DNA of 64,000 nt from Bacteroidia bacterium (GTDB lineage: Bacteria > Bacteroidota > Bacteroidia > AKYH767-A > OLB10), in assembly GCA_016788165.1 (NCBI GenBank), contig JAEUTH010000021.1, positions 72,496 to 136,495 on the forward strand. Reading direction: 5' to 3'. The translations under genes and the position numbers were made by a program. The notes under the pieces were generated by a model, which was not told the origin of the DNA, did not search any database, and saw only the letters and a list, made by a program, of their open reading frames with translations. Shown here piece after piece: positions 11,147-19,806 of the stretch. Every line of letters begins with the position of its first letter. Position 1 is the first letter of the stretch.

Positions 11147-12466
11147 TTATGATTTACCGCTAATAATAAATGTGGTACCAACACCAATAGTACTCGTTAC
11201 AGCTATGTTTAGTTGATGGTAATTGGCAATGGTTTTAACAATGGACAAACCCAAGCCATGACTATTGGCATCTTTCTGATGTAATCTGGTAAAACGATCG
11301 AATATAATGGCAATTTGCTCGGGCTCAATACCTAAACCAGTGTCGGAAATGGCAATTTCAAAATCATTATTAATTAATTTGCTGGTAATGGTTACGTTGC
11401 CTCCATGTTTATTGTATTTGAGGGCATTGATAAGCAAATTATTAAAAAGCATTTGTAACAATGAAGTATTGCTTTTTGCTAAAATAATTTGGTGTTCCAT
11501 ATCATTTATCATGGTAACTTCTTTATGTGCACAACGATCTTGCAGCTCTTCAATAATTTCGCTAATAAGGTCGTTTAAATTGGTAACCTCACTTTTGTCA
11601 AACTGTTCGTTTTCTACTTTTGATATTGTTAGCAATGCTTTAATAATTCGACTTAACCGGCTCAATATTTTTTGTGAGTCAATAAGTTTTAAGGCGGTAT
11701 CGTGATCGGTTTTTTGATCGGTGATTATATTTTCGAAACGGTTTTGTAATATCGATATGGGTGTTTGTAATTCGTGTGATACATTGGCAATAAATGCTTT
11801 TTCATGATTAAAGTCGTCTTTAATTTTAAGCATTAAGTTTTCGAAAGCCTGATCGAGATAGGTAAACTCAGCAGTAGAACTATTAACCGGATTCGATTTG
11901 AATTTTATAGGGTTATCAACTGCTTTAAGCTTGTTTAGTATTTTATTAAAAGGCAAAAGCAACATACCGATAAAGCCAAAGTCGCTTGCAATACTTATTA
12001 AAACCACCACCACCATTAACCAAATTGTAAATCGTGTAAAGGCCTTATCTAATTGTTCGATAGTGCTCAACCCTTCGCCTATATTGAGTGCATACATTTG
12101 ATTATCGTACATAAAACTGCGGTGTAGTACCCGGTGTTTTAATTCTTCTGTATCTAAAATCCAGGTTTCGATATCGATGCTATCAACGGTACTAAACGTA
12201 CTTGCATCGGTTATGGGTTCAATTTTTATAAATTCCTCTTTAAAAATTGTATGATCTGCATAGCTACAATCTTGCTCATGTTTAATATCATCTAAACCAC
12301 CTTGTTTCACCATCGACATAGCTCTGTCGGCATTGGCGCGTAAACGGTTATCAATATGACTAAACACAACCCTTTCAACAATAACCGGAAGGAGCAAACC
12401 AAATGCTGCAATAATTAATGCTTTAGAAATGGCATTATAAATAGCAAACTTTACTTTTAAGCGCAT
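11147..12466 (-). CDS. Membrane sensor histidine kinase (2 TM, HisKA + HATPase_c)
   Basis: H-box SHELQTPISIL. N/G boxes NLLINALKYNKHGG...ISDTGLGI...GLGLSIV. Two hydrophobic segments flank a periplasmic region. Confidence 0.9.
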   Translation of the reverse strand: MRLKVKFAIYNAISKALIIAAFGLLLPVIVERVVFSHIDNRLRANADRAMSMVKQGGLDDIKHEQDCSYADHTIFKEEFIKIEPITDASTFSTVDSIDIETWILDTEELKHRVLHRSFMYDNQMYALNIGEGLSTIEQLDKAFTRFTIWLMVVVVLISIASDFGFIGMLLLPFNKILNKLKAVDNPIKFKSNPVNSSTAEFTYLDQAFENLMLKIKDDFNHEKAFIANVSHELQTPISILQNRFENIITDQKTDHDTALKLIDSQKILSRLSRIIKALLTISKVENEQFDKSEVTNLNDLISEIIEELQDRCAHKEVTMINDMEHQIILAKSNTSLLQMLFNNLLINALKYNKHGGNVTITSKLINNDFEIAISDTGLGIEPEQIAIIFDRFTRLHQKDANSHGLGLSIVKTIANYHQLNIAVTSTIGVGTTFIISGKS

Positions 12467-12533: not shown

Positions 12534-12938
12534 TTATATGACATTGGTATGTTTTAAATGTGTTACCAAATCGTCAATTGAAAGTGGTTTTAAAAATAAG
12601 GCTTTTACCAAACTGCTGGCCTTAGCCCTGCTGTTATCTGTAAAATTTAGTGATGATGATACCATTACAATATGTATCTTATCAACTATTGGTTTTGGTA
12701 AGTTTTCGAATGCAGCTAAAAATTCAAAACCATCCATACCGGGCATTTGAATATCCAGTAAAATCAAATCAGGGCATGTTTGCTCATTACATGTTTTAAG
12801 GTACTCAATGGCTTCGATTGGATTAATGTATTTTAGAACAGAATGTGAAAAGCCTCGGATATTTATTAGTTTTTCGAGTAAAAATAAATCGATGCCATTG
12901 TCATCAATAAGCATTACTTGAATTCGTTTGTCCATCAT
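12534..12938 (-). CDS. Single-domain response regulator (receiver only, no output domain)
   Basis: VMLIDDN...LILLDIQMPGMDGFEF...IVMVSSS receiver motifs; 134 aa. Start overlaps the stop of the upstream REC-kinase gene. Confidence 0.85.
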   Translation of the reverse strand: MMDKRIQVMLIDDNGIDLFLLEKLINIRGFSHSVLKYINPIEAIEYLKTCNEQTCPDLILLDIQMPGMDGFEFLAAFENLPKPIVDKIHIVMVSSSLNFTDNSRAKASSLVKALFLKPLSIDDLVTHLKHTNVI

Positions 12939-14026
12939 TTTGGATTTTTATTAGGAATAAAAATATTGAATGTCGTGCCTATTTCACTGGTTGATTTAAC
13001 TTTTATAGAACCGTTAATTTTTTCTAATGCTTCTTTTACAATGAAAAGACCTATACCTGAACCTTGCTTTTTACTGGTGGTTGGTGTTCTGAAAAATAGT
13101 TGAAATATATTTTCGATATAGATTTGTGGAATACCAATACCATTGTCGCTTATTTCGATTTCTGCGCCTTGTAAATTTGTATTTACAGTAACGGTAACAC
13201 AATGCTTGGGTGTATTCGGGTTGTTATATTTAATGGCATTAGATATCAGATTATTAAGTATAACCCTTATGCGAAAATCGTCTGAAATAAAATTTGTGGT
13301 TTGATTTATGGTAACATTAAATACAACACTCGGTTCCAGATTGCTTAATGATTCTACACAGTCGCTTACTAAGATTTTAAAATCAATTACATCATTAATT
13401 TCTTCCAGGCGCGAGTTTTGATAATATTCAATAATGCGTTTGGTGTAATTATCAAGTTTTAAAATACTGCTTTCAATAACCTTAAAGTATTCTTCGGCTA
13501 CCAACATTTCAGGCTCCATTCTGGCATATTGAACTATACCTAAAACTGACATTAATGGCGAGCGTAAGTCATGCGATGCACTATAAACAAACCTGTTAAG
13601 TTCATCGTTTGTTTTCTCGAGCTGTGCATTTTTTTCGGCTAATTGTATGCGCGATCGGTATAAATCAGCACAATATTCCAGGGTTAATGTAAACTTATCC
13701 CAATCCCATGGTTTTTGTATGTATTTACTAATTTGTCCGGTATTAATGGCTTCAATTACGGTATCAATATCCGTTTGGCCAGTTATAAGCAGCCTGATAG
13801 TATTTGGATAGGTTTCGATAGTTTGTGCCAAAAACTGAATACCGGTACAACCGGGCATTCGTTGGTCGGAAATAATAATACCCATTTCATTGTTTTCAAT
13901 AATCTGCAAAGCTTCTTGGGCACTTATTGCTGTATATACTTTATACAATTTGCGGAACATTGATTTAAATGAAATCAGGTTGTTTTCCTCGTCATCAACA
14001 TAAAGTACTTTAAGTTGGTTTTCCAT
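12935..14026 (-). CDS. Receiver-fused histidine kinase (REC-HisKA-HATPase) with no sensor domain; phosphorelay intermediate
   Basis: N-terminal receiver VLYVDDEENNL...ISDQRMPGCTG...LITGQTD...KPWD, then H-box SASHDLRSPL and ATPase motifs NLISNAIKYN...DNGIGI...GSGIGL. Confidence 0.9.
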   Translation of the reverse strand: MENQLKVLYVDDEENNLISFKSMFRKLYKVYTAISAQEALQIIENNEMGIIISDQRMPGCTGIQFLAQTIETYPNTIRLLITGQTDIDTVIEAINTGQISKYIQKPWDWDKFTLTLEYCADLYRSRIQLAEKNAQLEKTNDELNRFVYSASHDLRSPLMSVLGIVQYARMEPEMLVAEEYFKVIESSILKLDNYTKRIIEYYQNSRLEEINDVIDFKILVSDCVESLSNLEPSVVFNVTINQTTNFISDDFRIRVILNNLISNAIKYNNPNTPKHCVTVTVNTNLQGAEIEISDNGIGIPQIYIENIFQLFFRTPTTSKKQGSGIGLFIVKEALEKINGSIKVKSTSEIGTTFNIFIPNKNPK

Positions 14027-14052: not shown

Positions 14053-16194
14053 TTATCTTTTTAATCGTAACGGTAAATATAACATTACTTCACTGCCTTG
14101 ATTGGGTGCCGATTCAATTTCAATCCTTCCGTGGTGGCTTTCGATAATTGAATATACAATAGACATTCCCAAACCGGTACCTTCGCCCACGTCTTTGGTT
14201 GTAAAAAAGGGTTCGAAAATTTTAGACTTCACTTTTTCATCCATCCCTACACCGGTGTCTGCTACGGTAATTTTAATAAAATCATTATCTAATATAGATG
14301 TAATGGTGAGTACATGATTTTTTTGCTGATTGTTTTTTTCGATAGCTTGTAGTGCGTTATTAAGTACATTCATAAACACCTGATTAAGTTTACCCGGGTA
14401 ACATTCGATATTGGGCAATACGTTCAGATTTTTAATAAGTGTTAGGCTTTTTGGCATTGAGTTTCGTAATAAAACCAGCGTTGATTCTATTCCTTCATTA
14501 AGGTTCGCTTCTTTAATATCACTTTCATCTAAACGAGAGAAATTTTTTAAGCCTTTTACAATTTCTGCTGTGCGTTTGGCTCCATCTTCAATGCCATTAA
14601 TTAAAATATTTATTTCATGTTTTAAGTAATCGAAATCAATTTCTTTTTTATAAGCTTCAATGTCAGTTTTAGATTGGTCAAAGTCAGCGGCATTATTTAA
14701 TGCATCGTATTTTTCAATTATCAATAAAATATCGTTTATATCCAGTTGTAATGGTCTGATGTTGGCGCTTACAAAATTAATTGGGTTGTTTATTTCATGC
14801 GCTATACCAGCAGTTAGTTGCCCTAATGATGCCATTTTTTCGGCATTAACTAATTGGGCTTGTGCATCTTTTAAATTTTTTAAAGTAATACCCAGTTCTG
14901 TATTGGCAATTTGGAGTTCTTGCGTTCGTTCGTTTACTTTTTGTTCAAGCATTAGATTCTGCTCAGAAATCAGTTTTTCCTTTTCGCGTAAAGCTGCCAT
15001 GGTTTCAGCTTGCGATTCCTCTTTTTCCTTTTTTAAAATATTAATCCGGTCGGCTAATGCAAATGAAAGCAGCACCACTTCGGCAGCCGAACCTAATGGC
15101 ATCATGTAAAGTGTATAATTATTGTAAGGTAGTATGCTAAAATCTTTTAATACATAAACCGTTACACCTATCAGGAAAACAGTCCATGCTAATAAAAAAT
15201 AGCCGGCAGGTCTAAATCCCTTTTTATAAATAAGGTAGCCAACATAAAGCATGTACAGCGATACCAGCGTTGCAATTAATTCGATTAAGATAAAACTAAC
15301 TTTAAACAGACCGAATAATGAAAATGCCGATGCGCATACGTATGCAAACATGAAAATTATAAACCCTTTATTATGGCTTGGATAAAAGAATTTTACATGC
15401 AAAAATTCACGCATAAAAACCATGCTGGCAATGCCAACTAAAGTTGGGAAAATGAATGAACTATAAACAGCCAATAATGGGATATTGGGCCATAGTACCA
15501 TAAAGGTATATCCATGAATACTTGCTTGCGTAAGCAGTACGGTGGCTAAATAAATTACATAGTATAAATATACTTTATCTTTTATTGTTACGTATAAGAA
15601 GGCATTGTAGAAAAACATTACCAGCATTATACCGATGTATATGCCAACGGCTAAATTTCTTTTTTTGTTTGATTCGCTAATCCGATCCGGAGTACCAATA
15701 AATATGGGTATTTGGATGTTTTCCCGGGCACTTACTTGTAGCAGTATGGTAGTTATTTTATGCGAAGGTAACTGCAAGTTGAAGATATAATCCGGATCGC
15801 GTATTACCCTGTGGTTAAAACTATTATACTCGCCTGAGTGTGCTTCAGAAAAAATGGTGTCATCATTAATCTGATAGCAACTAATTTTATCTAAACCCGG
15901 ATGTGAAACCTGTAACAAAAAATCACCTACGTTGGTTTGATTGGAAATTTTTAACTTAAGCCAGAAAACAGAATTGCTTATGCCGAAGTTGGGTACATCG
16001 GTGGTAATTCTGTTAAAGTTATTAAGTTGTTTTACTTCATTAATTGTTAGTTTTTGAGTTTTATCTTCGTAGTAAACAACTTGGTTGCTAACACTTATTT
16101 TGTAATCGCTGCTAACTATAGGAATTATTTGGGCCCGGGTTATACCGGCCAACAGCAGCAAACTTATTAGTGTAAATTGTTTAATTAAAAACAC
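14053..16194 (-). CDS. 7TMR-DISM sensor histidine kinase (7TMR-DISMED2 extracellular domain, 7TM, coiled coil, HisKA, HATPase)
   Basis: Signal peptide plus beta-rich extracytoplasmic domain (FWLKLKISNQT...), seven consecutive TM helices, H-box AHEINNPINFV, N/G boxes MNVLNNALQA...DTGVGM...GTGLGMSIV. Confidence 0.9.
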   Translation of the reverse strand: MFLIKQFTLISLLLLAGITRAQIIPIVSSDYKISVSNQVVYYEDKTQKLTINEVKQLNNFNRITTDVPNFGISNSVFWLKLKISNQTNVGDFLLQVSHPGLDKISCYQINDDTIFSEAHSGEYNSFNHRVIRDPDYIFNLQLPSHKITTILLQVSARENIQIPIFIGTPDRISESNKKRNLAVGIYIGIMLVMFFYNAFLYVTIKDKVYLYYVIYLATVLLTQASIHGYTFMVLWPNIPLLAVYSSFIFPTLVGIASMVFMREFLHVKFFYPSHNKGFIIFMFAYVCASAFSLFGLFKVSFILIELIATLVSLYMLYVGYLIYKKGFRPAGYFLLAWTVFLIGVTVYVLKDFSILPYNNYTLYMMPLGSAAEVVLLSFALADRINILKKEKEESQAETMAALREKEKLISEQNLMLEQKVNERTQELQIANTELGITLKNLKDAQAQLVNAEKMASLGQLTAGIAHEINNPINFVSANIRPLQLDINDILLIIEKYDALNNAADFDQSKTDIEAYKKEIDFDYLKHEINILINGIEDGAKRTAEIVKGLKNFSRLDESDIKEANLNEGIESTLVLLRNSMPKSLTLIKNLNVLPNIECYPGKLNQVFMNVLNNALQAIEKNNQQKNHVLTITSILDNDFIKITVADTGVGMDEKVKSKIFEPFFTTKDVGEGTGLGMSIVYSIIESHHGRIEIESAPNQGSEVMLYLPLRLKR

Positions 16195-16196
16195 AG

Positions 16197-16880
16197 TTAA
16201 TTGGGCAAAAACAGTTGGTAATTTATTTCAATAGAGCCCTTAGCGCCCATTTCAGTATATTTTTGATTCGGGCTGTTTCGCAAGCTTAACATGCGTTCGC
16301 GGTCATAGGGTTGTGAGGTGCCCAAATCTTTGGCATTTAAAATTCCTAATACCCGCGCAATATAGTTTTCGTTTGGATAAACAAATTGACCGTTGTCGCC
16401 TAACGAATCATCAACCACAAAACCAACACGCCTGAACATAGGCATGGTATAATCGGCACAAATGCCCATTAATGTTTTGCATTTAATTTGATTAACAATA
16501 CTGATGCCTGCACGGGTTAGTAATAAACTTAAACCTTTGCCAGCAACTACTTTGGCATTCCAAAGAGCGCAAAGTTCGCCTACACCTGTATTGATATATC
16601 CATTAACAATCTGATGTATGTTGGGGTCCATTTTTCCAATTGCTTTTTCAACGGGTAGCATATTAATGCCATCGGCAATTTGTACTCTTATGCCGCCCAC
16701 CAAAACGCCATCATCGCGTTCGGCAACAATGCCGTAAACGCAATTCCATGTCATCCATTCTTGGTTATTGGAAGTTATATTTGTTATGCCATAGTCTTTT
16801 AAAACGTTTACATGGCCTTCTAAATATTTAGCACTGGTTTCAGTATCGGTGGGGGCATGAAAAATTCTGAATCTGTACAT
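16197..16880 (-). CDS. GNAT-fold acyltransferase-like protein (function unresolved; acetyltransferase versus N-acyl-amino-acid / autoinducer-synthase-like)
   Basis: Acyl-CoA-binding-like motif LWNAKVVAGKGLSLLL. Size (227 aa) and secondary-structure pattern fit GNAT. Start lies 1 nt after the upstream gene stop. Confidence 0.5.
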   Translation of the reverse strand: MYRFRIFHAPTDTETSAKYLEGHVNVLKDYGITNITSNNQEWMTWNCVYGIVAERDDGVLVGGIRVQIADGINMLPVEKAIGKMDPNIHQIVNGYINTGVGELCALWNAKVVAGKGLSLLLTRAGISIVNQIKCKTLMGICADYTMPMFRRVGFVVDDSLGDNGQFVYPNENYIARVLGILNAKDLGTSQPYDRERMLSLRNSPNQKYTEMGAKGSIEINYQLFLPN

Positions 16881-16881
16881 T

Positions 16882-19131
16882 TTAAATCATAGTAAAACTG
16901 TTTTCTAAAGGTTTTCGTAGTGCAATAGTTGTAGGTGTTTGTGCATACATAACTCTAAACAAAAATGTATCTCTTAATGCAGGAAGAGACTCAAATATAT
17001 GCTCAAATTTAATTTGTTGTTTGTTTAGTTCGGCAATTTCGTTTTCGGAAAAGTGATGTATGCCTTGCAGTTTATTAAAATAAAATACCGGTGCACTAAT
17101 GGGTTGCAGGTGTAAACCTTGTGCGATAGCTGCCAGCCAAAAGCGTTGCACGCAAGCACCTGCATCAAGTACATTTAAATTTTTATCAACACTTAGCAGT
17201 GCTATTGCTGATGCACTTTTTATAGCATTAGATGTAATTTTTTTTAGTGCATCACCGCCTTTCCATTCGCTAACTTTTTCGATAACGGCCGGGTCGGAAG
17301 CTACTTTGAGGCCCGTAAAATCTATTTGGCTAAGTTCTAAAGTAGCTATATCTAATCCATCGCATGTTTTTTTTGCTTGTACGGTATCCCATCTAATTTC
17401 TTTATTAAAAAATTCGTCATGCCCATAAGGATTTAAAAACCTGATTTTTTCAACCGAAGCAACAATATCAGCCAGTGCAAAAATACTATCCTTATCATGT
17501 TTCCAACGTATGGTTGCAGGTTTGGCAACAATATCTAAATTGGTGGTTATGGTTGCATTAATGGGATGCCCGTTGCCGTGTTTGCGATTGGTGCAGCGTA
17601 CTTTAATTGCATTAAACAAAATTGAGTTGCCTGATTCTTTTGTTTTTGAAAAAGTTAATGCTGCTAAACAAAACGGATGTGATAAATGTTTAATTTCAAC
17701 GGCATAACCATCCATACCAGCTGTAAGTGATATATTTTCAATAGCAGCCCCCAAAGCCAGATGCGCTAAGTTGCCATCGGTATCGCTCCAGCAATAAGAC
17801 AGTGTGGCATTGTGTATTACAAATAGTACATCGTTTTTAAATACCCAATGCCATGGTTGGTTATTACCGGCTGACGGAGCTTTAATTGCAAATTGCAACC
17901 AACTTTCAATTCGGTTACCTATAACATCTTTACCTTTTATTTGATAATTAAGTGCAAAGTTTATTGCATCTTCCAATTTAAAAGTAGGGTGCTTTTTAAA
18001 TGCATTATCAGGTTTGGTTTCGGGTTGGTTCCCAATAATATTTTCAACATCAACATAATACCGGCCCGAGCTGTTAAACTGTCCCAATAAAACCCTTCTT
18101 GCAACATCGGCAGTTATGCCGCCACCCATTGTAACTGCACTGGCAAGCTGTGGCCATGTATTTATGCTTTGTTCAATTTCAATCATAGATGCTTTAAGTC
18201 TGACACTTGACGTATCAATACCTAAAACATCCATCATATAAGGTATTTTATCTTCCGTTGTTTTTAGTTGTTTTAGTTTTTCTATATTCAAATGTTCAAC
18301 CAGACCATGTAAAATGGGGCGCTCAGGTTCTAAATCAAATCGTTCAACATCAACCATACACTTATCGCTTGCTTCCATAAGTACGGGTATGCCATGTTTA
18401 CGCGCGGCATATCGGCTAATAATTTTTATATCAAAACCATCCGACTCTTCAATCAATAAGTCCATTTTACCGCCATTATAAAAAAATGCTTCTAAATTGT
18501 TTTCAGTAATTCCTTCAGGATAACATGTGATATTTATGTAAGGATCTATTTCGGCAATTTCGCGTGCAACGCTATATACTTTTGGTAAACCAATATTATG
18601 TATGCCGGTTCGTATGCGGTTTAAATTATTAAGTTCTAATGTGTCGAAATCGGCTAAATGTATATGGTTACTTATACGCTCCATAGCTATGGTAACCGCT
18701 ACCGATTGACCTACTGATAAGCCGATAATACCTATCTTTTTTTTCTGAAGGATAAGCTGTTCTTCCGGTGTAATTTTATATTGATTGCGGCTGGTGCGTA
18801 CTTTAATAAACTCTGCTTCGGGCAAGGTTCTTACCAAACGTTTACTCCAGGGATAATAAATCCACATACCATAATTATTCATAGTAAATGGATGGATGTA
18901 AGCTTCGGCTTTTTGCTTTAAAATAGCATCTGCAAACTTTTGCGAAGGATTACAGGTTTTTATAAATTCTTTTAATTGTTCAAACAAAGTATCAAACTTT
19001 TCAACTTGATTCTGTGTTGTAATTTGTTCAATTTCTTTTTCGTCAGATGCACAGCTAAATATTATTGGTTTGTAATTGTTAAAAGCACTTTGCATGTTTA
19101 TGTCAAGGTGATTGGAAATGTGTAAACTCAT
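16882..19131 (-). CDS. Rv1355c-family protein: E1-like (ThiF/MoeB-type) adenylation domain fused to a double nitroreductase (SagB-type, FMN) domain
   Basis: E1 Rossmann start KKIGIIGLSVGQSVAVTIAM plus ADFDTLELNNLNRI (ThiF D.D.VE.SNLNRQ motif) at about aa 130-175. Nitroreductase signatures APSAGNNQPWHWVF (about aa 418) and a second half VRCTNRKHG (about aa 510). Confidence 0.8.
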   Translation of the reverse strand: MSLHISNHLDINMQSAFNNYKPIIFSCASDEKEIEQITTQNQVEKFDTLFEQLKEFIKTCNPSQKFADAILKQKAEAYIHPFTMNNYGMWIYYPWSKRLVRTLPEAEFIKVRTSRNQYKITPEEQLILQKKKIGIIGLSVGQSVAVTIAMERISNHIHLADFDTLELNNLNRIRTGIHNIGLPKVYSVAREIAEIDPYINITCYPEGITENNLEAFFYNGGKMDLLIEESDGFDIKIISRYAARKHGIPVLMEASDKCMVDVERFDLEPERPILHGLVEHLNIEKLKQLKTTEDKIPYMMDVLGIDTSSVRLKASMIEIEQSINTWPQLASAVTMGGGITADVARRVLLGQFNSSGRYYVDVENIIGNQPETKPDNAFKKHPTFKLEDAINFALNYQIKGKDVIGNRIESWLQFAIKAPSAGNNQPWHWVFKNDVLFVIHNATLSYCWSDTDGNLAHLALGAAIENISLTAGMDGYAVEIKHLSHPFCLAALTFSKTKESGNSILFNAIKVRCTNRKHGNGHPINATITTNLDIVAKPATIRWKHDKDSIFALADIVASVEKIRFLNPYGHDEFFNKEIRWDTVQAKKTCDGLDIATLELSQIDFTGLKVASDPAVIEKVSEWKGGDALKKITSNAIKSASAIALLSVDKNLNVLDAGACVQRFWLAAIAQGLHLQPISAPVFYFNKLQGIHHFSENEIAELNKQQIKFEHIFESLPALRDTFLFRVMYAQTPTTIALRKPLENSFTMI

Positions 19132-19338: not shown

Positions 19339-19806
19339 ATGGAAGATTTGTCGATAATTAAGGTTCTTTATGTTGATGACGAAGCGCATAATTTAAATGC
19401 GTTTAAAGCAAGTTTTAGGCGTGTATTTACTGTGTTTATTGCACTTTCGGCCGATGAAGCCAAGCAAATAATGTCCGAAAATGAGATACACGTTTTAATT
19501 ACCGATCAACGTATGCCTGGTACACCGGGTACTGAATTATTAGCCTATGCCGTAAAAGATAAGCCCGACCAGATACGGATTTTACTTACCGGTTTTAGCG
19601 ATATGGATGCCTTACAAGATGCCGTAAATCGCGGCCACATTTATCGCTACTTACAAAAACCCTGGGATGATGAAATTTTGCGTCAAACCATTATTGAAGC
19701 CTACCAGATTTATGCCTTAAAACTGGAACGCGAAGCATTAACTCAAAAGCTACAACAAAACAACGAGCAACTTGAATTTTATTTAAGACATAAATTATTG
19801 TCTTAG
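19339..19806 (+). CDS. Single-domain response regulator (receiver only), divergent from the operon above; its receiver is paralogous to that of the REC-kinase
   Basis: VLYVDDEAHNL...ITDQRMPGTPG...LLTGFSD...YLQKPWD aligns almost motif-for-motif with the receiver of the 12935..14026 protein. Confidence 0.85.
   Translation: MEDLSIIKVLYVDDEAHNLNAFKASFRRVFTVFIALSADEAKQIMSENEIHVLITDQRMPGTPGTELLAYAVKDKPDQIRILLTGFSDMDALQDAVNRGHIYRYLQKPWDDEILRQTIIEAYQIYALKLEREALTQKLQQNNEQLEFYLRHKLLS

Follow-up and report, generated by a model that had tools for sequence, protein, structure and literature searches.

Which reaction is catalysed by a small acyltransferase-like protein encoded between a ThiF-nitroreductase fusion and a membrane histidine kinase, and does its product serve signalling? 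The question is raised by a 227-amino-acid (aa) open reading frame (ORF), here called P0001, in a 64,000-nucleotide (nt) stretch of DNA from a Bacteroidia bacterium (GenBank assembly GCA_016788165.1, contig JAEUTH010000021.1, positions 72,496 to 136,495 of the forward strand), the whole of which is referred to below as the window. A first-pass annotation, made from the sequence alone, had favoured a signal-synthase-like acyltransferase over a plain acetyltransferase. We consider it likely that P0001 works in the cytoplasm as a GNAT-fold N-acyl amino acid synthase, divergent but of the TrzA/OxzA type, and feeds the Rv1355c-family oxazolone enzyme (P0002) encoded upstream of it. The fold of P0001, the family assignment of its partner, the remote homology to actinobacterial genes in the trzA position and the conserved gene linkage were all computed here. 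The two enzyme genes are the following.

16197..16880, minus strand: 227-aa GNAT-fold protein P0001, predicted TrzA/OxzA/FeeM-type N-acyl amino acid synthase (ORF, translation, structural model)
16882..19131, minus strand: 749-aa Rv1355c-family protein P0002 with ThiF and Nitroreductase domains (Pfam, NCBIfam NF005901)

The P0001 ORF runs on the minus strand, which the first-pass annotation had left unmentioned, from an ATG at 16880 to a stop codon at 16197-16199. A single nt (16881) separates the 749-aa ORF (16882..19131, stop included) from this ATG, and 2 nt lie between the P0001 stop and the GTG start (16194) of a 713-aa kinase ORF (14053..16194). The ORF length, both gaps and the motif NAKVVAGKGLSLLL reported in the first-pass annotation are borne out by the ORF coordinates and the translation, and its description of the flanking genes holds as well, with Pfam ThiF and Nitroreductase domains upstream and a 7TMR-DISM kinase downstream.

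P0002 matches NCBIfam NF005901 ('Rv1355c family protein') with 707.5 bits against a cut-off of 476, over positions 6-717 of the 722 in the hidden Markov model (HMM); PADLOC returned generic E1 matches only for P0002 and nothing for P0001. Members of the Rv1355c family, including TrzS and OxzB, are fusions of a ThiF cyclase and a flavin oxidase that convert N-acyl amino acids to oxazolones (PMC12856293; bioRxiv 10.1101/2020.06.11.147165). TrzA (Rv1356c) N-acylates L-tryptophan with short acyl-coenzyme A (acyl-CoA) substrates (Kleetz et al., PMC12856293), and Rv1355c, now TrzS, cyclises and desaturates the N-acyl-Trp that the adjacent TrzA produces (PMC12856293). OxzB acts alike on OxzA products in proteobacteria (bioRxiv 10.1101/2020.06.11.147165), and TyzA/B/C of Mycobacterium tuberculosis follow the same pathway logic (PMC10404671). 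Because the partner of P0001 is thus a characterised enzyme type, an OxzB/TrzS oxazolone synthetase, the locus suggests an N-acyl amino acid synthase that supplies an oxazolone pathway rather than a LuxI-type N-acyl-homoserine lactone (AHL) synthase, which refines the earlier reading. Nine homologues spanning three phyla (Bacteroidota, actinobacterial plasmids and one genome labelled Caldilineaceae, Chloroflexota) all keep Asp231 in the ThiF core of P0002 and Arg512, Arg516 and Arg564 in its oxidase half; from position only, D231 and R564 would be the counterparts of TrzS D217, the ATP-site Asp, and R540, the Arg of the flavin mononucleotide (FMN) site.

P0001 itself gave no match in Pfam-A at E up to 1, FeeM (PF21926) and Autoind_synth (PF00765) included; its sole NCBIfam match was at chance level (E 0.16), and searching the PDB by sequence with P0001 alone found nothing. 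Its family comprises 503 matches at E up to 0.001 in a 90%-identity database, with 475 representatives at 50% identity. The named members belong to Bacteroidota (Pedobacter, Sphingobacterium, Chitinophagaceae, Cytophagales, Flavipsychrobacter), and the names shown are all 'hypothetical protein' except for one JGI record, 69% identical, labelled 'N-acyl-L-homoserine lactone synthetase'. In an alignment of 78 members, A1, the columns of G63 and E102 are invariant and those of H23, W42, R65, W107, Y168, P169 and Y221 nearly so, and the consensus at the cofactor loop is WNSxxxxGxGxS, with GxGxS kept. Acetyltransf_1 is weakly matched by 31 of the 78 (best E 1.7e-5), FeeM (PF21926) weakly by four (best E 0.0012) and Autoind_synth by none at E up to 0.1; the first-pass annotation, too, had seen no canonical LuxI N-terminal signature in P0001. 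The A1 profile also matches plant serotonin N-acetyltransferase weakly (E 0.003).

Rare fusions of the GNAT-like domain were seen as well: P0209 carries an N-terminal TIR domain that matches defence-system TIR models, and P0216 carries leucine-rich repeats. A further protein, P0146, has a second stretch resembling P0001, with just a weak HTH_33 hit in Pfam.

The AlphaFold2 model of P0001, computed with A1 (predicted local distance difference test, pLDDT, 95.8; predicted template modelling score, pTM, 0.92), is a GNAT fold, with 238 PDB chains at Z of 8 or more in VIA-align, all the listed ones GNAT. Foldseek against the PDB places the AHL synthase BjaI and FeeM on top, FeeM (2g0b) being second with a template modelling (TM) score of 0.76 on target, and gives probability 1.00 to many GNATs. 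In VIA-align, a search independent of Foldseek, FeeM (2g0b) comes first (Z 17.4; root-mean-square deviation 2.6 Å; 175/188 residues aligned), followed by the acyl-CoA N-acyltransferase 1xeb (Z 16.6) and then the AHL synthases RpaI, LasI and TofI (Z 15.7-16.1), the remaining GNAT acetyltransferases standing at Z 15.6 or less, mostly 12.6-14.7, over about 145 residues. The modelling and structure comparison proposed in the first-pass annotation put FeeM at the top in VIA-align with AHL synthases among the best, and its preference for a signal-synthase-like acyltransferase agrees with a fold search in which FeeM and then the AHL synthases outrank generic acetyltransferases. Two elements of P0001 may bear on catalysis.

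16518..16559, minus strand: P0001 residues 108-121, NAKVVAGKGLSLLL, a β4-α3 loop with G-x-G, presumed CoA/phosphopantetheine pyrophosphate-binding site (sequence, model secondary structure, consensus)
16575..16577, minus strand: codon of Glu102, invariant in the 78 relatives, candidate general base (A1 conservation; aligns with a Glu of the actinobacterial trzA-position proteins)

The stretch NAKVVAGKGLSLLL comes after strand 100-108 of the model and leads into helix 117-131, a placement usual for the GNAT pyrophosphate-binding loop. Residues 111-116 read V-V-A-G-K-G against the Q/R-x-x-G-x-G/A of GNAT motif A, with G-x-G kept.

A further line of evidence is the relationship to genes that occupy the trzA position in Actinobacteria. 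Querying PLSDB with P0002 by tblastn brought up Mycobacterium, Mycolicibacterium, Nocardia and Rhodococcus records that contain Rv1355c-family genes. In Nocardia farcinica the trzA position, directly upstream of the Rv1355c-family gene and on its strand, is taken by a 249-aa ORF, which the A1 profile matches in hhalign at 95.5% (E 1.4e-8, 168 columns). In Rhodococcus qingshengii a 252-aa hypothetical protein, 44% identical to the Nocardia farcinica ORF, adjoins the Rv1355c-family gene in divergent orientation and beside a GGDEF gene, and is matched at 86.7% (E 4e-6). A profile of these two actinobacterial sequences is matched at 95.9% (E 6e-9), and in the profile-profile alignment its GG.R, E....W and YP line up with G63/R65, E102/W107 and Y168/P169 of A1. 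Neither trzA-position protein matches any Pfam model, as for P0001. The hhalign comparisons of A1 with the ORF downstream of the Caldilineaceae-labelled Rv1355c gene and with a Mycolicibacterium plasmid neighbour detected no relation. Judged by these profile matches, the P0001 family is a remote homologue of the trzA-position genes and more than a structural analogue.

The Rhodococcus qingshengii plasmid locus (1982-6184 of L130), in which the Rv1355c-family gene and its trzA-like neighbour stand beside a GGDEF-domain gene, echoes the cyclic di-GMP (c-di-GMP) genes that flank trzAS in M. tuberculosis. On the Caldilineaceae-labelled 14-Mb contig (3873-9316 of L057), an Rv1355c-family gene 42% identical to P0002 occurs without a P0001-type gene, between genes for DUF6875, an O-methyltransferase and an unassigned 335-aa ORF, flanked by two HTH-NACHT-TPR proteins and with a second copy in the genome. 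On a Kitasatospora plasmid (4233-7117 of L131), the gene for a 616-aa 'ThiF family adenylyltransferase', which shares 42% identity in its C-terminal part with the ThiF half of P0002, is followed by one for a ketoacyl-ACP synthase III (ACP, acyl carrier protein), with a LuxR-type regulator nearby; similar ThiF-only matches occur on three Streptomyces plasmids.

Conserved linkage ties the two enzymes together. When loci are anchored on the ThiF-oxidase gene, the P0001-family gene adjoins it in 78 of 80 Bacteroidota-type loci, the two exceptions being one at a contig edge and one other cluster type in the Caldilineaceae-labelled genome; in about 15 of the 80 the acyltransferase gene comes first, as in oxzAB and trzAS. 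A natural ThiF-GNAT fusion, P0262 (NCBI name 'Rv1355c family'), is counted together with this adjacency as linkage support for the synthase reading. The GNAT-like gene occurs as a single copy in 84 of 401 evenly sampled genomes of the class, spread over 44 of 200 genera, and neither the gene nor the cassette was found in 8 other sampled genomes of the window's own family (0/8). Wherever the neighbourhood was examined, in 83 of 83 sampled genomes from 44 genera, the GNAT-like gene stands beside a 7TMR-DISM histidine kinase gene. The first-pass annotation had named a housekeeping acetyltransferase assignment with an unconserved neighbourhood as what would speak against it; since neither Autoind_synth nor any housekeeping acetyltransferase model is matched by P0001 and the neighbourhood is kept in every genome examined, the reverse was found on both counts.

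The enzyme partner varies. Partners were typed in 51 GNAT-like loci from about 48 genera with flanks of 7-8 kb, and all 51 have the 7TMR-DISM kinase gene next to the GNAT-like gene on the same strand. Beside the GNAT-like gene they carry:

ThiF plus oxidase: 25/51 loci
ThiF alone: 19/51 loci
methyltransferase: 5/51 loci
no partner: 2/51 loci

The ThiF-only loci encode an enzyme of about 370 aa (L024, L025, L027, L030, L166, L170-L175, L177, L179, L186, L191, L192, L194 and L195 among our loci). An oxidase-domain profile found nothing within the ThiF-only, methyltransferase or partner-less loci, and in two ThiF-only genomes a whole-genome search with NF005901 gave the ThiF half only (G421 and G411; their contig numbers and coordinates suggest that they are identical with G017 and G007). 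ThiF-only cassettes should end at a saturated, reactive oxazol-5(4H)-one or at other chemistry. In the five methyltransferase loci (8723-9361 of L019, 7237-7878 of L022, 8791-9552 of L021, and L169 and L178) a methyltransferase gene, in place of one for a ThiF enzyme, stands between those of the GNAT-like protein and the kinase. Pfam, for three loci, and tblastn, for the other two, typed two of these methyltransferases as ICMT/PEMT-family membrane enzymes and three as class I. Enzymes of the ICMT type place a methyl group on the carboxylate of lipidated amino acids. A swapped-in methyltransferase of the ICMT/PEMT type or of class I fits a lipidated amino acid with a free carboxylate, and the exchange suggests that these cassettes make N-acyl amino acid methyl esters.

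From these elements we infer the chemistry, the substrates and the catalytic residue of the pathway. P0001 would take an acyl group from acyl-CoA (or acyl-ACP), whose pyrophosphate would be held by loop residues 109-116, and is predicted to transfer it to the α-amino group of a free L-amino acid, probably an aromatic one by analogy with the known systems, with Glu102 probably acting as general base. The resulting N-acyl amino acid, which keeps a free carboxylate, would pass to the upstream P0002, whose ThiF domain would adenylate the carboxylate and close the oxazol-5-one ring and whose flavin oxidase domain would desaturate the Cα-Cβ bond to give an N-acyl oxazolone, as in OxzAB, TyzACB and TrzAS. 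In the methyltransferase loci the carboxylate would be esterified, and where a partner is lacking, as in two loci, it would remain unmodified. The 7TMR-DISM kinase phosphorelay co-transcribed with the enzymes may in turn have the lipid so formed, or a derivative, as its ligand or cue.

Several points weigh against the synthase reading. P0001 itself fits no Pfam or NCBIfam model, and the first position of its GNAT motif A is Val, not Gln or Arg. In VIA-align the likeness to FeeM and the AHL synthases is just about 1-3 Z units above that to generic GNATs. The homology comparison used unannotated or hypothetical actinobacterial neighbours, one of them divergent, in place of the characterised Rv1356c (TrzA), Rv2336 (TyzA) and Pseudoalteromonas rubra OxzA. 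More generally, the assignment of the Bacteroidota family rests on sequence, model and gene context. Finally, because 19 of the 51 loci have a ThiF enzyme without a detectable oxidase, an unsaturated oxazolone cannot be the end product everywhere.

Another key feature is the constancy of the kinase. In the window, the enzyme genes are accompanied by the following genes.

14053..16194, minus strand: 713-aa 7TMR-DISM sensor histidine kinase (Pfam 7TMR-DISMED2, 7TMR-DISM_7TM, HisKA, HATPase_c)
12935..14026, minus strand: 363-aa receiver-HisKA-HATPase hybrid kinase, a usual cassette member (Pfam; follows the sensor kinase in most loci)
12534..12938, minus strand: 134-aa receiver-only response regulator (Pfam Response_reg)
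11147..12466, minus strand: 439-aa histidine kinase, end of the same-strand run (Pfam HisKA, HATPase_c)
19339..19806, plus strand: 155-aa receiver-only regulator, divergent from the enzyme genes (Pfam; divergent homologue in most loci)

When the sensor half of the kinase (residues 1-390) was searched in 400 genomes of the class sample, the 74 best matches all adjoined a GNAT-like gene, kinase and GNAT-like coordinates being matched by eye. The other 9 GNAT-positive genomes have an adjacent kinase too, with a weaker score, and the best-scoring genome without a GNAT-like gene comes in at E 1.4e-55. Mapped onto a maximum-likelihood tree of 52 GNAT-like proteins, partner type switches at least 16 times, and at least 5 changes of the ThiF-plus-oxidase label are forced by well-supported branches alone. 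Since the kinase pairing is constant and the partner varies, the constant core of the cassette is the acyltransferase with a 7TMR-DISM kinase subfamily, not the oxazolone synthetase. The repeated partner changes and a patchy occurrence suggest that the cassette has moved horizontally, as does the GNAT-like protein closest to P0001 (76% identity), which comes from a different taxonomic family. The GC profile of the window has no island signature, GC content being uniform.

Pfam found no exporter and no DNA-binding regulator in the window cassette. Scans for sigma-70 promoters and terminators stayed at or below shuffle expectation, the scanner being one that does not cover Bacteroidota promoters. 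DNA identical to positions 14053-19131 of the window occurs in activated-sludge and bioreactor metagenome runs from 8 studies, 2017 to 2025, most of which may be its source; no RNA run was among the sequencing runs listed with the same DNA.

The constant pairing with a polytopic kinase makes a signalling role of the product plausible on gene context. A small-molecule synthase gene stands beside that of a polytopic membrane histidine kinase in LuxM/LuxN, CqsA/CqsS and LqsA/LqsS, whose enzyme and receptor families are unrelated to those described here; export of the P0001 product and its binding by the kinase are conjectural. We tentatively suggest, as a possibility that may well turn out otherwise, that in Bacteroidota the GNAT-like synthase is dedicated to the 7TMR-DISM kinase, as signal producer to receptor. 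The signal would be an N-acyl amino acid whose carboxylate, depending on the lineage, is masked as an oxazolone ring (desaturated or not) or a methyl ester, or else remains free; as a neutral lipid it would be sensed in the membrane by the kinase and would drive the phosphorelay. The authors of the oxazolone papers have raised the signal idea too, from the chemical resemblance to AHLs.

The main alternative for the physiological role accepts the enzyme activity proposed for P0001 and takes the product to be a stress, antimicrobial or membrane lipid, with the phosphorelay sensing something else. We regard this as possible without being inclined towards it. Oxazolones are mostly cell-associated in M. 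tuberculosis and Rhodococcus and antibiotic-induced in proteobacteria (PMC12856293; bioRxiv 10.1101/2020.06.11.147165), and a cassette with neither exporter nor DNA-binding regulator suits such a lipid. Such a product is harder to reconcile with the adjacency of the 7TMR-DISM kinase in 83/83 genomes of 44 genera, with the linkage of all 74 best sensor-half matches among 400 genomes to the GNAT-like gene, and with a kinase pairing that outlasts repeated exchange of the tailoring enzyme.

It is improbable, in our estimate, that P0001 forms part of a protein-modification module, alone or with the E1-like domain, in which it acts on or binds phosphorelay proteins, for instance through acylation of a kinase or regulator lysine. 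The invariable adjacency to the kinase would fit such a module, as would the classical adenylation of protein C-termini by E1-like enzymes and the metagenomic protein P0267, in which a truncated GNAT-like domain is fused to HATPase_c. Against it, a ubiquitin-like or small carrier protein is missing from the cassette, those members of this E1 clade that have been characterised use small molecules as substrates (PMC12596934), and P0267, alone in its cluster and without HisKA or the membrane part, may be a deletion product.

That P0001 is a LuxI-type AHL synthase, using S-adenosylmethionine with acyl-ACP or acyl-CoA, is highly unlikely. BjaI, RpaI, LasI, TofI and EsaI are indeed among its best structural matches and the 69%-identical relative bears an AHL synthetase name in JGI, but PF00765 matches 0/78 family members, the remote sequence homology is to trzA-position genes, and the partners activate or methylate carboxylates, whereas an AHL has no free carboxylate. 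There is equally little to recommend the reading of P0001 as an ordinary N-acetyltransferase acting on proteins or small molecules, whether of the RimI, the aminoglycoside or the arylalkylamine type, to which generic GNATs at Z 13-15 against the model and the weak profile match to serotonin N-acetyltransferase might point, given that no NCBIfam or Pfam acetyltransferase model fits P0001 and that its distribution is patchy (84/401 genomes; 0/8 in its own family) and tied to one cassette.

Among known systems, TrzA/TrzS of Mycobacterium, Rhodococcus and relatives, the N-acyl tryptazolone pathway (PMC12856293), is alike in combining a small GNAT-type acyltransferase with a ThiF-cyclase/flavin-oxidase in a single polypeptide. 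P0001 is only about 20-24% identical to actinobacterial trzA-position proteins, the acyltransferase gene of the window lies downstream of the synthetase gene, and the window pair is set within a histidine-kinase phosphorelay, whereas the M. tuberculosis pair stands beside c-di-GMP genes. OxzA/OxzB of Pseudoalteromonas rubra and other proteobacteria likewise consists of an N-acyltransferase and a ThiF-nitroreductase di-domain protein from two genes (bioRxiv 10.1101/2020.06.11.147165; Nat Chem Biol 2021), and its products have been proposed as stress-related signals (bioRxiv 10.1101/2020.06.11.147165); OxzB homologues have been reported from alpha-, beta- and gammaproteobacteria only, without reported kinase linkage, and the likeness seen is one of gene logic. 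TyzA of M. tuberculosis (PMC10404671) has as its closest structures FeeM (2G0B) and BjaI (5W8C), the two top Foldseek matches of P0001, and the same chemistry is predicted for both, although the Tyz cyclase and oxidase are separate proteins and TyzA has 322 aa. FeeM itself, an N-acyl amino acid synthase from soil environmental DNA (2G0B, PF21926), is the best structural match of P0001, yet at 11% identity; its donor is acyl-ACP, and no ThiF enzyme accompanies it.

Both the type of enzyme and the oxazolone pathway are already known, and the Bacteroidota family is uncharacterised and without a family model. The published surveys consulted place OxzB homologues in proteobacteria and show a TrzS cluster made up mainly of Actinomycetota, with kinases unmentioned, and a full-text literature search combining oxazolone, histidine kinase and Bacteroidetes found nothing relevant. 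Added here are the profile link to the trzA-position genes, the 83/83 linkage, the constant acyltransferase-kinase core and the repeated exchange of tailoring enzymes.

To our knowledge, Bacteroidota have no well-defined native small-molecule quorum signal. Oxazolone lipids were discovered between 2020 and 2025, and their function is named by the authors as the main open question, on which the Bacteroidota family offers a concrete handle. The P0001 result also puts a name on a family so far called 'hypothetical protein' among the names shown, apart from the one JGI label. An acyltransferase tied to one kinase subfamily, with its tailoring enzyme exchanged, is the pattern expected of a signal synthase and its receptor, and the presence of the cassette in cultivable genera (Pedobacter, Mucilaginibacter, Daejeonella, Cryomorpha, Arcticibacter) makes the idea testable at the bench. 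If true, such a pair would represent bacterial cell-cell or autocrine signalling by compounds of a new chemical class and would give oxazolones their first physiological role.

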